Virus record (IMG/VR): IMGVR_UViG_3300046822_000192
Strand: one strand, 5' to 3'
DNA: 64,000 bases
Source: an uncultured virus (IMG/VR IMGVR_UViG_3300046822_000192)
Lineage: Duplodnaviria; Heunggongvirae; Uroviricota; Caudoviricetes
Position numbers and translations under genes: made by a program. The notes beneath the pieces are model-generated. The model searched no databases. It was not told the origin of the DNA and saw only the letters and a program-made list of their open reading frames with translations. Below, one piece after another: positions 7,455 through 58,824 of this stretch (the first letter of the stretch is position 1; each line of letters opens with the position of its first letter).

Positions 7455-7704
7455 CTTCGGCGTTCTTGATGGCTTCCTTGGCGCGCTGAATTAATAGCCG
7501 TGCGTCCTTGTGCGGGGTTTCAGCCATCTCGACAAAATCCTTGCACGCCTCCAGCAAATCCGGTGCGGCGGAGATCAGGCAGGCGTTGGCTTGCCTGATC
7601 TCTTCATTGTATTCCACGCCAGCGAGATCGGCCTGTGCGATGACACGATCTCCGGCCCAGATTAAGACTCCATCGCTATGCCACGGTGCAGGAGTGTGCT
7701 TCAT
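7438..7704 (-). CDS. Conserved phage hypothetical protein (KHTPAPW...ANACLISAAPDLLEA type)
   Basis: Recurrent phage motif; GGAGG RBS. Confidence 0.75.
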   Translation of the reverse strand: MKHTPAPWHSDGVLIWAGDRVIAQADLAGVEYNEEIRQANACLISAAPDLLEACKDFVEMAETPHKDARLLIQRAKEAIKNAEGAPRG

Positions 7705-49803: not shown

Positions 49804-49832
49804 AAAAAAGGGGAGGCATTTAGCCTCCCCTT
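49804..49832 (-). terminator. Rho-independent terminator after capsid gene
   Basis: AAGGGGAGGC-TAAAT-GCCTCCCC-TTTTTT on minus strand. Confidence 0.85.
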
Positions 49833-55259: not shown

Positions 55260-55389
55260 AGGCATCTTAAATCACTTTATCTGCTTTTGAAAGCACTAAC
55301 GCTAATGGGCGAAACCTCATGACCACCTCACTCGTTGTTATGAGGCTGGTAGGCAGCGTGTACTTACCGGACCGGCTCAGGTAGGAAAT

Positions 55390-55779
55390 ATGATTGTCAA
55401 AGTCTATCGTAATCTCAAACACGGACGGTCGGCAGCCCCGCTGTATTCAGTATTATACAAAGGAAAAGTGATTGCCAGGAAACACAGAGTCCTACTCCGT
55501 GATGCGCATTTCATTGTCAATGAAGCTGGTAGGCGGCGTGTACTCGAAAGCGGACATAAAAATGTGCATGCTTTTGTCGTCGGAACCTTAACAAATGAAC
55601 ATGGATGTTTCGGTATAGATGCCGATGGAAATGATTTTAGAATGCGCGTAACTTACGACCCGCGAAAAGGCCCGCACTTCGTTACAGCAACGGCTCCGGT
55701 AGGAAGAATTGTAAAAAGTGCTCTCGGCGTACTGCTGAATGAGCGTGGTATCAGCGCCTGCTATCTGGAAACTGCTTGA
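55390..55779 (+). CDS. Conserved phage hypothetical protein
   Basis: VYRNL...VNEAGRRRVL..GHKNVHAFVVG...VTYDP; AGGA RBS. Confidence 0.8.
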   Translation: MIVKVYRNLKHGRSAAPLYSVLYKGKVIARKHRVLLRDAHFIVNEAGRRRVLESGHKNVHAFVVGTLTNEHGCFGIDADGNDFRMRVTYDPRKGPHFVTATAPVGRIVKSALGVLLNERGISACYLETA

Positions 55780-55979
55780 AATATATAAATCTGACAGTAC
55801 GCGATAATCTTCCAGAATCTAGCGTAGATGTCTACGATACAGATACAAAAGAGCTATTACGCAGATATCCTTTACATCTTATCCATTCTGGGTACTGGCA
55901 CGCTACACAGAACGACCTTGCTCGACTCGCCTCGGTACGTATACCAGACCGGCTCAACGAATGCAAACTCTGGTGCTGA
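55776..55979 (+). CDS. Hypothetical protein
   Basis: Overlaps upstream stop. Confidence 0.45.
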   Translation: MKYINLTVRDNLPESSVDVYDTDTKELLRRYPLHLIHSGYWHATQNDLARLASVRIPDRLNECKLWC

Positions 55980-55989
55980 AAATTTCTTG

Positions 55990-56017
55990 TTGACTTTGCC
56001 GGACGTTGTGGTATAGT
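55990..56017 (+). promoter_or_regulatory. sigma70-type promoter of leader + tRNA operon
   Basis: TTGACT-16-TATAGT with extended TG. Confidence 0.7.
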
Positions 56018-56148
56018 TCTTATCAATGCAGCAAACAAGCTGCAGAAACTTAAGCGTAAAAACGTCGCTATCAATGGCGTATTGGGTAAGGGCGGCACCG
56101 GCATATTTCCGGCCCGCCCGAACCGCTTAAGTTTGAAAAAGAGACGAT

Positions 56149-56274
56149 ATGAAGAACACATCTACAATTCGAACAGCAAGACTTCAGTCGTCACAGCTCC
56201 ATTCCTATCCACAGCACCCGCTGTTGCCTTGCTCGCAAAGCTGGCTGAGTTTACCTCAGTCCTTTAGCCTGTAA
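56149..56274 (+). CDS. Putative leader (attenuator) peptide of the tRNA operon
   Basis: MKNTSTIRTARLQSSQLHSYPQHPLLPCSQSWLSLPQSFSL; last 30 codons use only amino acids served by the array. Confidence 0.85.
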   Translation: MKNTSTIRTARLQSSQLHSYPQHPLLPCSQSWLSLPQSFSL

Positions 56275-56313
56275 GGCTAGCCTGCAAATCGGGCATATTC
56301 AAATTTAAATCAC

Positions 56314-56387
56314 GCTCCAGTAGTCCAATTGGCAGAGGCGTCTCATTCAAAATGAGAATGTTGGGGGTTCGAATCCCTTCTGGAGTA
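56314..56387 (+). tRNA. trnL: tRNA-Leu(CAA), short variable loop
   Basis: TCTCA-TTCAAAA-TGAGA; 5-nt V loop; A73. Confidence 0.85.
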
Positions 56388-56398
56388 TTAATTAGTTC

Positions 56399-56474
56399 CG
56401 GGCAGTAGCTCCAAATTTGGTAGAGCGGCAGATTGAAACCCTGCGCGTTGCTGGTTCGAGTCCAGCCTGCTCGA
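56399..56474 (+). tRNA. trnF: tRNA-Phe(GAA)
   Basis: Loop TTGAAAC; acceptor CGGGCAG/CTGCTCG. Confidence 0.85.
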
Positions 56475-56478
56475 CTTT

Positions 56479-56565
56479 GTCCTAGTAGACCCGTACGGCG
56501 CGGGGGCGCACTGTAAATGCGTTGTCCCTTTGTGGACCCAGTCGGTTCGATTCTGACCTAGGGCA
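56479..56565 (+). tRNA. trnY: tRNA-Tyr(GTA)
   Basis: GCGCA-CTGTAAA-TGCGT; long V arm. Confidence 0.9.
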
Positions 56566-56569
56566 CTTT

Positions 56570-56654
56570 GGAGAGTCCGGCATTGGTGCGCCAAGCACGT
56601 TGGAAGCGTGTGGCCGACTAAACTCGGTTAGAGATTCAATTTCTCTACTCTCCG
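56570..56654 (+). tRNA. trnS: tRNA-Ser(GGA)
   Basis: GCACG-TTGGAAG-CGTGT; long V arm; G73. Confidence 0.9.
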
Positions 56655-56657
56655 CTT

Positions 56658-56739
56658 GGTAACGCAGCCATTGGTGAAGCAAATTGTTTCGAAAACAGTG
56701 CTCCTCCGGGAGTTTAGAGTTCAAATCTCTACGTTACCG
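56658..56739 (+). tRNA. trnS: tRNA-Ser(CGA)
   Basis: ATTGT-TTCGAAA-ACAGT; long V arm; G73. Confidence 0.9.
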
Positions 56740-56828
56740 CTGCCCTTAATGGGACATGCACTCGTATCCTGTACCATCCGTATCCGCAAGGTCTGATGGT
56801 TGTGCCGGGAAAAAGCAGTGATATTTGA

Positions 56829-56916
56829 TGCCACGTGGCGGAATTGGCCCAACGCTCGCAGTACGTAACTGCGCAACCGATATATCGGTATGAAGTTTCG
56901 AACACTTCCGTGGCAA
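56829..56916 (+). tRNA. Atypical class II tRNA, identity undetermined (loop TACGTAA)
   Basis: TGCCACG/CGTGGCA; CGCAG-TACGTAA-CTGCG; long V arm; GAAGT-TTCGAAC-ACTTC. Confidence 0.75.
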
Positions 56917-56922
56917 GTTTTT

Positions 56923-57011
56923 GGAAGCATGGCTGAACGGCTAAAGCACCGGCTTTGAATACCGGCGAGACGTTGAGAGACGTCGTACGAGTTCGAATCT
57001 CGTTGCTTCCT
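56923..57011 (+). tRNA. trnS: tRNA-Ser(TGA)
   Basis: Loop TTTGAAT; long V arm; U73. Confidence 0.9.
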
Positions 57012-57015
57012 CTCT

Positions 57016-57100
57016 GGCCTTGTGGTGAAATTGGCAAACGCAGCAGCTTCAGAGGCTGCCGCTCATTACGAGCTTAAGGGTTCGATTCCCTTCAGGGCCA
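57016..57100 (+). tRNA. trnL: tRNA-Leu(CAG)
   Basis: GCAGC-TTCAGAG-GCTGC. Confidence 0.92.
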
Positions 57101-57103
57101 CTT

Positions 57104-57185
57104 GCTCTCATGCTGGAAATGGCAGACAGCTACGCCTGAGAAGCGTAGGTCGAGAGACGTAAGGGTTCGATTCCCTTTGAGAGCA
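57104..57185 (+). tRNA. trnL: tRNA-Leu(GAG)
   Basis: TACGC-CTGAGAA-GCGTA. Confidence 0.92.
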
Positions 57186-57190
57186 CTCAC

Positions 57191-57273
57191 GGTCCTGTGG
57201 CGGAATTAGGCAGACGCGCCAGACTTAGAATCTGGTGCCTTCGGGTGTGAGGGTTCGATTCCCTCCGGGACTA
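57191..57273 (+). tRNA. trnL: tRNA-Leu(TAG)
   Basis: CCAGA-CTTAGAA-TCTGG. Confidence 0.92.
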
Positions 57274-57276
57274 CTT

Positions 57277-57349
57277 GTACGGTTGCCGGAATGGTTAACG
57301 GGCTGGTCTGCAAAACCAGCTTCTAAGGGTTCGATCCCCTTACCGTACT
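57277..57349 (+). tRNA. trnC: tRNA-Cys(GCA)
   Basis: CTGGT-CTGCAAA-ACCAG; U73. Confidence 0.92.
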
Positions 57350-57352
57350 CTT

Positions 57353-57424
57353 AGGCGTGTAGTTCAGCGGCAGAACGGTTGCCTTTGAAGCAACTAGTCA
57401 TCGGTTCGAGTCCGATCGCGCCTT
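57353..57424 (+). tRNA. trnQ: tRNA-Gln(TTG)
   Basis: GTTGC-CTTTGAA-GCAAC. Confidence 0.9.
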
Positions 57425-57428
57425 CTTT

Positions 57429-57517
57429 ACGGACGTGGCTGAGTGGTCGAAAGCTCCGGATTCCAAACCCGGATGACTGTAATAGTCGCATCGTGTGTCC
57501 GAATCACACCGTCCGTG
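57429..57517 (+). tRNA. trnW: tRNA-Trp(CCA) with long variable arm
   Basis: Loop TTCCAAA; A1-U72, G73; 20-nt V region; T-loop TCCGAAT. Confidence 0.8.
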
Positions 57518-57522
57518 CTTAT

Positions 57523-57595
57523 GCCGAGGTAGCCTTAATGGTAGAGGTGGCGCACTGTGAATGCGTCTGTCAGAGTTCGAATCTCTGTCTCGGTA
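57523..57595 (+). tRNA. trnH: tRNA-His(GTG), no G-1, A73
   Basis: GCGCA-CTGTGAA-TGCGT. Confidence 0.9.
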
Positions 57596-57599
57596 CTTC

Positions 57600-57687
57600 G
57601 GAAGAGTGTCCGGAATTTGGTCAACGGACCTGACTGCTAATCAGGCGACGAGTAATCGTCATGGAGGTTCGAGTCCTCTCTCTTCCG
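57600..57687 (+). tRNA. trnS: tRNA-Ser(GCT)
   Basis: CCTGA-CTGCTAA-TCAGG; long V arm; G73. Confidence 0.92.
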
Positions 57688-57695
57688 CTTTTAAT

Positions 57696-57780
57696 GCCCT
57701 TGTGGTGGAATTTGGTAGACGCGGTCGGCTTAAACCCGGCTATCCTTCGGGATATCACGGTTCGAATCCGTGCAGGGGCA
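57696..57780 (+). tRNA. trnL: tRNA-Leu(TAA)
   Basis: GTCGG-CTTAAAC-CCGGC. Confidence 0.92.
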
Positions 57781-57785
57781 CTCAT

Positions 57786-57861
57786 CGTGACGTATAGAAG
57801 TCTGGTTTTTCTAACCGGTCCTGGAAACCGGCAAGCGCAGGTTCGAATCCTGCCGTCACGA
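57786..57861 (+). tRNA. trnP: tRNA-Pro(TGG), C33 and A37
   Basis: CCGGT-CCTGGAA-ACCGG; C1-G72, A73. Confidence 0.85.
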
Positions 57862-57866
57862 CTTAT

Positions 57867-57942
57867 AGCGTAGTGCGGAAGTCTGGTCATCCTTCCTGCT
57901 TCGGAAGCAGGCAATTCGTGGGTTCAAATCCCACCTACGCTA
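57867..57942 (+). tRNA. trnP: tRNA-Pro(CGG)
   Basis: CCTGC-TTCGGAA-GCAGG. Confidence 0.88.
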
Positions 57943-57946
57943 CTAT

Positions 57947-58019
57947 GGGGGCATAGCAAAGTCTGGCAATGCATCCGGCTCTGACCCGGACATCGGAGGT
58001 TCAAATCCTTCTGCCCCTT
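57947..58019 (+). tRNA. trnQ: tRNA-Gln(CTG)
   Basis: TCCGG-CTCTGAC-CCGGA. Confidence 0.9.
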
Positions 58020-58045
58020 CTTACACTAACTGCCTACGATAATTT

Positions 58046-58285
58046 TCACTTCGTACGACCTCCAGAGTCTTTCGCATCCATATTCTTTTCGATATTCTGC
58101 ATCAAATCGCGAAGTTCCTGAAATTTACGTTTAATCACGCGTACTTCCATGTAATTTTTAGGCGCACAAAGGCAATCTTTTTGGCGCAGCACACGCGCCT
58201 GAGCGGTTGAAAGATCCTTAAATAGAATCTTGTAAGCCTTATCGGCGGATTCTTCCAGTGATTTCAAATCGTGAATATCCAACAT
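58046..58285 (-). CDS. Hypothetical protein, probably leaderless
   Basis: TTGACA-18-TAGCCT ends 6 nt before ATG. Confidence 0.6.
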   Translation of the reverse strand: MLDIHDLKSLEESADKAYKILFKDLSTAQARVLRQKDCLCAPKNYMEVRVIKRKFQELRDLMQNIEKNMDAKDSGGRTK

Positions 58286-58334
58286 GCGGAGAGGCTAGCA
58301 TGAAACTAGCGTAAATGTCAATGGGGGCAGCGAA

Positions 58335-58357
58335 GAGTGATGCCGTAGGCATCACTC
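58335..58357. repeat. Perfect 10-bp hairpin flanked by GGGGGCA direct repeats
   Basis: GAGTGATGCC-GTA-GGCATCACTC. Confidence 0.9.
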
Positions 58358-58824
58358 GGAGCGGGGGCAATACATATATATTACATGTAGATAGTACCTC
58401 CCCTACTCGCAGGTCCCAAGTACGTGCGACAGGCAGACATAAACAAACTATCCGGCTCTTGAATTGAATTTACTTCCCACTGCGAGTTGATGAGAAGTGC
58501 TTGCCTCGATACCGCAAGTTTCGATGGACTGGCGGCACAAGAGTAGGGCCTCGTTGTCCCATACTCCTTTTCAAGTATCACATCTGGCAGCTTACAAACA
58601 CGCCAGAGTTGCGTAAATAGTTATACTAGCGAAATATCGATATTGTTGTTCTTTGCCAGCGTTTCATTTTGCTCCATATATTTCGTTAATGGTGCTCGAC
58701 GTTCACAGGCAGCAACGTCGATTTCGGGTACATTGCCCGCAATAAATTTTGTATTCGTGATTGCACTTCATTTGTGGATACGCTGAGGATTCTAACACGC
58801 CAGCCGGACTCTCAAAATTTTTAT

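Follow-up and report, generated by a model that had tools for sequence, protein, structure and literature searches.

The stretch of DNA analysed here, called the window below, comprises 64,000 nucleotides of an uncultured tailed phage (IMG/VR record IMGVR_UViG_3300046822_000192). It carries an array of 19 tRNA genes preceded by a short open reading frame (ORF), referred to as the leader, most of whose codons call for the same amino acids as the tRNAs encoded behind it. The placement of this ORF is typical of leader-peptide attenuators, with the promoter, the leader ORF and the first tRNA following one another in that order:

55990..56017, plus strand: sigma-70-type promoter (TTGACT, 16 nt, TATAGT, TG before the -10 element; 10 of 12 matches, the best in 55300-58600)
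56149..56274, plus strand: leader ORF, 41 sense codons (ATG at 56149) and a TAA stop; MKNTSTIRTAR followed by a 30-codon run
56182..56271, plus strand: restricted run, codons 12-41, encoding only L, Q, S, H, Y, P, C, W and F
56314..58020, plus strand: array of 19 tRNA genes (ARAGORN, Rfam)
Array gene order, first part: Leu(CAA), Phe, Tyr, Ser(GGA), Ser(CGA), 88-nt gap, type-II 'Thr(CGT)', Ser(TGA), Leu(CAG), Leu(GAG)
Array gene order, second part: Leu(TAG), Cys, Gln(TTG), type-II Trp, His, Ser(GCT), Leu(TAA), Pro(TGG), Pro(CGG), Gln(CTG)

The promoter lies directly 3' of the stop codon of a 67-aa ORF and is followed by a 5' untranslated region (UTR) of 122 nt and then by the leader ORF, whose end is separated by 39 nt from the first tRNA, Leu(CAA), starting at 56314. 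The position of the ORF, its 41 codons and the 39-nt distance had been given in an earlier reading of the letters alone, the original prediction, and were borne out by the sequence check. The tRNA genes were called by ARAGORN, which finds 17 of them with default settings and 19 with a relaxed threshold; 15 are confirmed as tRNAs by Rfam. Eighteen of the 19 correspond to exactly nine amino acids (Leu x5, Ser x4, Pro x2, Gln x2, Phe, Tyr, Cys, Trp and His). Translation of codons 12-41 of the leader yields these same nine amino acids, all of them present, through 21 distinct codons that include three Ser codons of the AGY box (AGC, AGT, AGC) and no CGN or other Arg codon, just as had been proposed. 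The match claimed between this run and the 18 readable tRNAs holds as well when the relaxed ARAGORN calls are used: with wobble allowed, the run offers a codon to every one of the 18 anticodons, and CTA alone is missing as a Watson-Crick cognate.

The 30-codon run is the longest of its set in the window, all six frames included, and the runners-up reach 19 and 15 codons. Among 11,174 codons from 24 long ORFs of the phage, the set accounts for a share of 0.34 in frame and of 0.44-0.46 off frame. Mononucleotide shuffling of the 90 nt never gave a run above 21 codons in 400,000 trials, and when the letters were shuffled only within each of the three codon positions, the full run of 30 survived in 12 of 3,000,000 trials. 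Base composition or a rut-like bias was rejected as the sole cause on the basis of an analytic estimate from the base composition of the run (about 0.57 per codon, hence about 5e-8 over 30 codons). When the whole ORF is considered, 31 of 40 codons belong to the array set (p = 6.5e-6 against the window's own background), and this count rises to 34 of 40 if Thr is included (p = 1.9e-6). The nature of the exceptions points to a rule set at the level of amino acids and tRNAs, not of nucleotide periodicity, because Ser AGY codons, for which the array encodes a tRNA(GCU), account for all three that begin with a purine, and because CGN codons are absent. The same conclusion follows from the set itself (L, F, W, Y, C, P, S, Q and H, without I, V, M, A, G, T and N), which is a grouping of the codon table and not a chemical one.

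This last property bears directly on the idea that the ORF encodes a functional small protein unrelated to tRNAs. The ATG start, the A-rich N-terminus and the perfect conservation among the copies found would fit such a protein; the 30 residues, without charge and without I, V, A, G, T or N, nevertheless follow the codon table and not chemistry, and neither a homologue, by protein search, nor a Pfam family was found for the leader peptide. This explanation is considered highly improbable.

A different cause could be sought in the overlapping frame one base upstream, where an ORF of 61 codons (56082-56267) is open and protein-like, with small and hydrophobic residues (…VVTAPFLSTAPAVALLAKLAEFTSVL) and a pyrimidine at the second position of 26 of 29 codons, so that the run would be its shadow. 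This candidate was rejected by synonymous resampling according to phage codon usage with the 56082-56267 peptide held fixed: a run of 30 was reached in 2 of 200,000 resamplings, and a run of at least 19 in 0.29%. Moreover, the only start of this frame is a TTG inside a GC hairpin, with a Shine-Dalgarno energy of -1.5 kcal/mol, and no Pfam family was found for its product. As for plain coincidence, some selection is to be expected in a striking case chosen among very many windows; against it stands the position of the run, which falls exactly within a 290-nt leader whose array serves this same, unusual choice of amino acids. Coincidence or a shadow of the 61-codon frame is thus judged an improbable origin of the pattern. 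The codon set of the leader and the amino-acid set of the array are linked beyond chance, and chance, composition and the neighbouring frame are unlikely causes of the match.

Several features of the array deserve description in their own right. The 'Thr(cgt)' gene (56829-56916), the only one outside the nine amino acids, is an 88-nt type-II tRNA-like sequence whose anticodon loop, UACGUAA, has A in place of U at position 33 and whose seventh acceptor pair is mismatched; the array of a related contig, L003, lacks this gene, which may be a pseudogene or an odd decoder. The 88 nt just before it (56741-56828) give no tRNA call even under relaxed ARAGORN and may represent a decayed tRNA. The tRNA with anticodon CCA (57429-57518, 90 nt) combines a long variable arm (type II) with a first pair A1-U72 and with G73. 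A1-U72 and G73 are bacterial Trp identity marks, and a type-II Trp tRNA is unusual; the L003 array contains one too. In total, 12 of the 19 tRNAs are type II, which is why the bacterial Schlafen tRNases were considered; the passages on these enzymes in PMC13056530 that were covered hold nothing relevant to the window array. The gene just upstream of the promoter region (55390-55779) encodes a 129-aa protein matching Pfam Phage_L5_gp82 (E = 2e-24) and PHROG 586. No tRNA-targeting or tRNA-repair gene was found adjoining the array, the neighbouring genes being without tRNA-related domains, and no finding here connects the array or its leader to tRNA-cleaving defence of the PrrC or PARIS type. An Rfam scan of 55500-58500 (E <= 1) returned tRNAs only, with no other family and no T-box.

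Folds, control signals and copies of the leader

Between the promoter and the first tRNA, the following elements can be recognized in addition to the ORF:

56027..56134, plus strand: structured 5' UTR, with a small hairpin (56027-56044) and a three-way junction (56046-56134) closed by AAACUUAAGCG / CGCUUAAGUUU
56139-56143, plus strand: Shine-Dalgarno-like AAGAG, followed by a 5-nt spacer and the AUG (56149-56151)
56143..56192, plus strand: predicted helix of the minimum-energy fold, in which the start region GACGAU-A-UGAAG (56143-56154) pairs with codons 12-15, CUUCAGUCGUC (56182-56192)
56157..56234, plus strand: C-rich, G-poor stretch (C 0.37, G 0.14; top 0.3% of 78-nt plus-strand windows), rut-like in composition
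56226..56277, plus strand: long hairpin of the predicted fold, spanning the last third of the ORF and the stop
56280..56294, plus strand: small hairpin GCCUG-CAAAU-CGGGC, 5 pairs
56295..56313, plus strand: AU-rich spacer before the first tRNA; array versions diverge from about here

The 5' UTR fold has a minimum free energy of -47.4 kcal/mol (z = -4.6, equalled by 0 of 200 shuffles), and the minimum-energy fold of the whole leader (56025-56313) gives z = -5.0. The 3' part of the leader ORF is folded too, and the competing pairings that the original prediction had placed around the stop are present in the predicted folds. When a modelled ribosome footprint is moved stepwise along the leader so as to mask the 5' arm of the long hairpin, the latter gives way to a UAGCCU/AGGCUA helix. 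Alternative helices appear in this way as the mask advances, but without a terminator as their competitor. The small hairpin at 56280-56294 was tried and rejected as a terminator, having only 5 pairs and an AU-mixed tail without a U tract, and two scans of 56149-56313 detected no intrinsic terminator (GC hairpin and U tract), in agreement with what had been predicted. Over the 64 kb, the scan reports three canonical terminator-like sites at two places, which include a strong bidirectional intrinsic terminator at 49808-49832, 3' of the major capsid gene.

The phage to which this leader belongs encodes terminase, portal, tape-measure, capsid and decoration proteins, and its DNA is contained in soil and rhizosphere metagenomes. 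The nearest record has a length of 49.8 kb and a completeness rating of 42%, from which a genome of about 118 kb may be expected. The 129-aa upstream gene occurs at 100% identity in three IMG/VR contigs. In the two that include the full-length leader, L001 and L003, the leader is 100% identical to that of the window; the third, L002, ends inside the leader ORF, of which the covered 5' part is identical, and differs by two changes in the 5' UTR. Contigs from four soil or rhizosphere DNA runs likewise show an invariant leader wherever it is covered, and branch at 56297-56306. The L003 array, which diverges right after the small hairpin (after about 56297), has 15 tRNAs for the same nine amino acids and an inserted HNH endonuclease; scored for this array, the enrichment of the leader gives p = 7e-6. 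Another HNH insertion is carried by the L001 array. Since the leader stays identical while the sequences branch at 56297-56306, one and the same promoter-leader unit stands in front of differing arrays. The leader does not occur a second time in the window or in any locus fetched for comparison.

Two side observations concern the boundary between the leader and the arrays. The array versions part from one another no more than about 10 nt past the small hairpin (window 56295-56310), a situation that resembles a recombination boundary. HNH homing-endonuclease ORFs are found within or just before tRNA arrays at L001:7031-7795, L003:7486-7929 and L171:2796-3200, the last in the phage described in the next section.

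Outside these copies, more remote phages were reached through the 129-aa protein (53-59% identity) or the capsid (67-81%), and in none of them does an array adjoin the gene. G003, one of these phages, does possess an array at another place; it comprises 31 tRNAs, the first of which follows a promoter immediately, with no leader in between. A megablast search against public phages gave no match, and the distant blastn matches were to tRNA genes only.

The stable folds and the constancy of the leader in front of arrays that vary would also be expected of an untranslated structured RNA, that is, an element for processing, stability or protein binding of the tRNA precursor, of which the codon pattern would be a side effect; the strength of the folds (the z-scores given above), a poor Shine-Dalgarno sequence and a paired AUG speak in favor of this explanation. 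Structure and composition alone, however, do not produce the in-frame run, as the two shufflings described above demonstrate. In addition, the purine-rich arm of the long hairpin (AGC, TGG, AGT) remains within the codon set, and no Rfam family other than tRNA matches. An RNA of this kind is regarded as an unlikely explanation of the locus.

Leaders before tRNA arrays of opposite content in phage G007

A leader built along classical lines was observed in G007, a contig of another uncultured phage found through a 48%-identical protease-like protein. The window portal has no match in G007, which is therefore not a close relative of the window phage. Its tRNA genes are split by first codon base into blocks, at two loci, L171 (G007:C1:50500-56800) and L172 (G007:C1:82800-92800). 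The GNN block comprises Val, Gly, Asp, Ala and Glu tRNAs plus one Cys, and the other block Tyr, Leu x4, Pro, Ser, Met and Phe. The window array, for its part, decodes YNN codons only, and shows the same sorting by first codon base.

The GNN block is preceded by the ORF MKNAAQVERDCNGATEPGVADAGTVSSDVIVEGG (leader region L171:2560-2800), which is rich in Ala, Val, Asp, Glu and Gly: 22 of its 33 codons belong to the set of the block (p = 6e-6), and it ranked best among the 35 ORFs listed in six upstream regions. Downstream of it lies a 10-bp terminator with a T run. In the predicted fold, codons 24-28 of this leader pair with the 5' arm of the terminator and constitute an antiterminator, which forms with a modelled ribosome at codon 12 or 18 and does not form with the ribosome at codon 24, at codon 30 or at the stop. 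The HNH insertion at L171:2796-3200 lies between this terminator and the first tRNA. Before the Tyr/Leu block, a 45-codon ORF contains 13 Leu or Tyr among 44 codons (p = 0.004) and is followed by a terminator 13 nt before tRNA-Tyr, again with a predicted antiterminator option. The sequence TAGCAACCGAT after the stop is common to both leaders. A search with an 18-nt piece of the G007 leader returned one identical second contig and otherwise chance matches only.

Cross-scoring separates the leaders of the two phages: 2 of the 40 codons of the window leader belong to the GNN set and 5 of the 33 codons of the G007 GNN leader belong to the window set, each being depleted in the codons of the other. 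An analogous, classically built attenuator, as judged from its predicted folds, thus precedes arrays of opposite content in another phage.

A weaker hint was noticed further along the same contig. At L172:5640-5702, a 20-codon ORF, MRFMNPMMRPPMSLGDGTGG, rich in Met and Pro, has four Met codons after the start, Pro as CCA, CCG and CCT, and Phe; it lies 120 nt before tRNAs for Pro(cgg), Ser, Pro(ggg), Pro(tgg), Met, Met and Phe. No strict terminator was found for this ORF, and the z-score of the fold is only -1.8.

A candidate decoding gauge

On the basis of these sequence features, the ORF of the window may be a translated gauge of decoding that feeds back on the expression of the array, probably via Rho or ribosome masking; a probability of about one half is assigned to this reading. 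A ribosome would read an A-rich start (MKNTSTIRTAR) and then 30 codons needing the nine amino-acid classes of tRNA of the array. The time spent by the ribosome on the leader would report the decoding of these codons, since 30 consecutive ones need the tRNA classes of the array, and this transit time would be coupled to the amount of array RNA made or surviving. As no intrinsic terminator is present, Rho-dependent coupling, or else processing or stability, would be the most likely output step. A slow or queued ribosome would cover the C-rich stretch at 56157-56234 and keep Rho off, so that RNA polymerase could proceed through the array; in this way, a stalled ribosome may mask a rut site. A fast ribosome would leave at the UAA, the AUG would pair again with codons 12-15, a helix that may limit re-initiation, and Rho would act on the bare leader and cut transcription short. 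The net outcome would be a negative feedback from decoding capacity to tRNA supply.

The sign of the response might be the opposite one. Translation of the leader might shield the RNA from Rho or RNases, and expression of the array would then need working translation (feed-forward or licensing). The codon restriction, the position of the ORF, the C-rich stretch and the lack of a terminator are shared by both forms, and the sequence does not fix the sign of the response. The antiterminator geometry of G007, on the other hand, gives read-through upon stalling, which is the classical sign, and shutting the array off when its own tRNAs are scarce would have no obvious benefit. This inverse logic is considered unlikely.

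To see whether leader content follows array content elsewhere, as the original prediction had asked, ORFs ending near the first tRNA were scored for the amino acids of the array in the public phages Bromden, Aeromonas 31, Trax, Trina, Mvi-JY20 and Brizo, and in G003. This array-level comparison is the valid one for the window, because a block-level version split the window array, two Ser tRNAs being missed by default ARAGORN. At block level, 132 ORF-block pairs from 9 loci gave roughly uniform p-values, the best pair being a Leu-rich 18-aa ORF of Rhodococcus phage Trina (p = 2.3e-4). A weaker hint among the 132 tests comes from G003 (L046, reverse strand 7534-7626), where a 30-codon ORF with SSSTSSSS (TCA TCA TCG ACT TCG TCT AGT AGC) runs into tRNA-Ser(gct), followed by tRNA-Ser(cga) (p = 0.003). 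In the T5-like array of Vibrio phage Brizo (L090, MK895508.1), a tRNA gene often starts 1-10 nt past the end of an annotated small CDS, and the composition of these CDSs is unmatched to the tRNAs that follow. Five jumbo-phage contigs contain scattered single tRNAs only.

Several results weigh against the decoding gauge. At array level, none of the 19 ORFs upstream of the first tRNA was enriched at the seven loci of the six public phages and G003 (smallest p = 0.085), and no such leader was seen at seven further array loci from four uncultured phages, judged by eye; with 14 other array loci devoid of such a leader, the design is not general. The G007 attenuators are analogues and not proof for the window locus, because that phage shares only the 48%-identical protease-like protein and has no portal match. 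No divergent homologue of the leader was found, only identical copies, in IMG/VR and metagenomes with the 129-aa protein, the capsid and the peptide as queries. At the locus itself, the Shine-Dalgarno sequence is weak (-2.9 kcal/mol against a generic anti-Shine-Dalgarno, versus -8 for the capsid and decoration genes; 44% of the ATGs of the window match or beat its score), and the minimum-energy fold places the AUG in a helix. The intrinsic terminator of classical attenuators is missing from the leader of a phage that uses a canonical one at 49808-49832. Finally, the C-rich stretch is not independent evidence, because the codon set itself favors C and partly forces the composition of 56157-56234.

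The tRNA-sensing role first proposed for the leader is consequently supported in part. The codon and array link beyond chance, the covariation in G007 and the expected absence of a terminator speak for it; the weak Shine-Dalgarno sequence, the paired AUG and the 14 loci without a leader speak against it, and the ribosome-binding site, weak as it is, argues only weakly for translation of the ORF. The proposed Rho route fits the missing terminator and would need a C-rich, G-poor stretch such as the one inside the ORF, the composition of which is partly a by-product of the codon set and which lies in an ORF with a folded 3' part. The expected tracking of array content by leader content was encountered in one phage, G007, and no such leader was seen at the 14 other array loci.

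Known leader-peptide systems and phage tRNA arrays

Ribosome-mediated attenuation is a textbook principle. Its best-known representatives are the attenuators of amino-acid operons such as hisL, trpL and pheL, together with the thrL leader, which samples Thr and Ile, and the ilvGMEDA leader, which samples Leu, Val and Ile. Enterobacterial attenuators of this type are treated in PMC1183508 and PMC3082878. The window resembles them in having a short ORF between a promoter and the genes presumably regulated, competing helices around the end of this ORF, and an enrichment in codons whose supply the downstream genes would improve; the G007 leaders add to this likeness a pair of terminator and antiterminator. 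The differences are that the regulated genes would be tRNAs instead of biosynthetic enzymes, that the window leader samples nine amino-acid classes over 30 codons versus one to three, and that it lacks an intrinsic terminator.

The tnaC leader of the tna operon and the speFL leader of speF are Rho-dependent switches that sense a small molecule via the nascent peptide at one defined site. Rho-dependent leader-peptide switches are the subject of PMC8429421. As with tnaC and speFL, the window has a leader ORF without intrinsic terminator and a C-rich, G-poor stretch where a stalled ribosome would sit; unlike them, any of 30 codons could slow the ribosome, and the Rho dependence is putative. In T-box riboswitches, a single uncharged tRNA is bound directly, with no ribosome involved, and the genes under control are those of aminoacyl-tRNA synthetases or amino-acid genes. 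The proposed gauge would likewise tie expression to the state of specific tRNAs, without any T-box or other Rfam family at the window locus.

The reasons why phages carry tRNA genes are debated between codon supplementation and escape from tRNA-cleaving defence, and to our knowledge next to nothing is established on the regulation of these genes. The two roles of such arrays, supplementing codons and countering defence by tRNA cleavage, are discussed by van den Berg et al. (eLife 2023, PMC10264068) and, for PARIS and AriB, in PMC11464382. The window shares with the arrays described there a phage-borne block of many tRNA genes; the abstracts of these papers mention neither a leader ORF nor a regulation of array expression. 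Full-text literature searches, limited to papers outside the subscription journals, found no description of leader-peptide or attenuator control of tRNA genes, phage arrays included. What would be new here is the use of attenuation on tRNA genes, a test track of nine amino acids and a form without terminator.

It can be tentatively proposed, as a possibility that stays somewhat doubtful, that some phages sort their tRNA genes into blocks by first codon base, each with a leader gauge read by the ribosome and composed of the codons of its block, and top up each sector of the code independently of the others once its decoding slows down; the window would then contain the purest gauge known (30 of 30 codons, nine amino acids), without intrinsic terminator. 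The YNN leader of the window and the GNN leader of G007, the latter with a textbook terminator, form a testable pair, and the comparison of leader composition with array composition provides a simple rule for the search of more cases. If this proposal is true, a new route, through Rho or processing, would lead from the speed of the ribosome over many codons to the output of non-coding genes. A leader ORF that samples the codons served by its array would already carry ribosome-mediated attenuation over from amino-acid biosynthesis to the genes of tRNAs, with nine amino acids sampled in place of one to three. Phages with such a leader would measure decoding capacity and adjust their tRNA supply.

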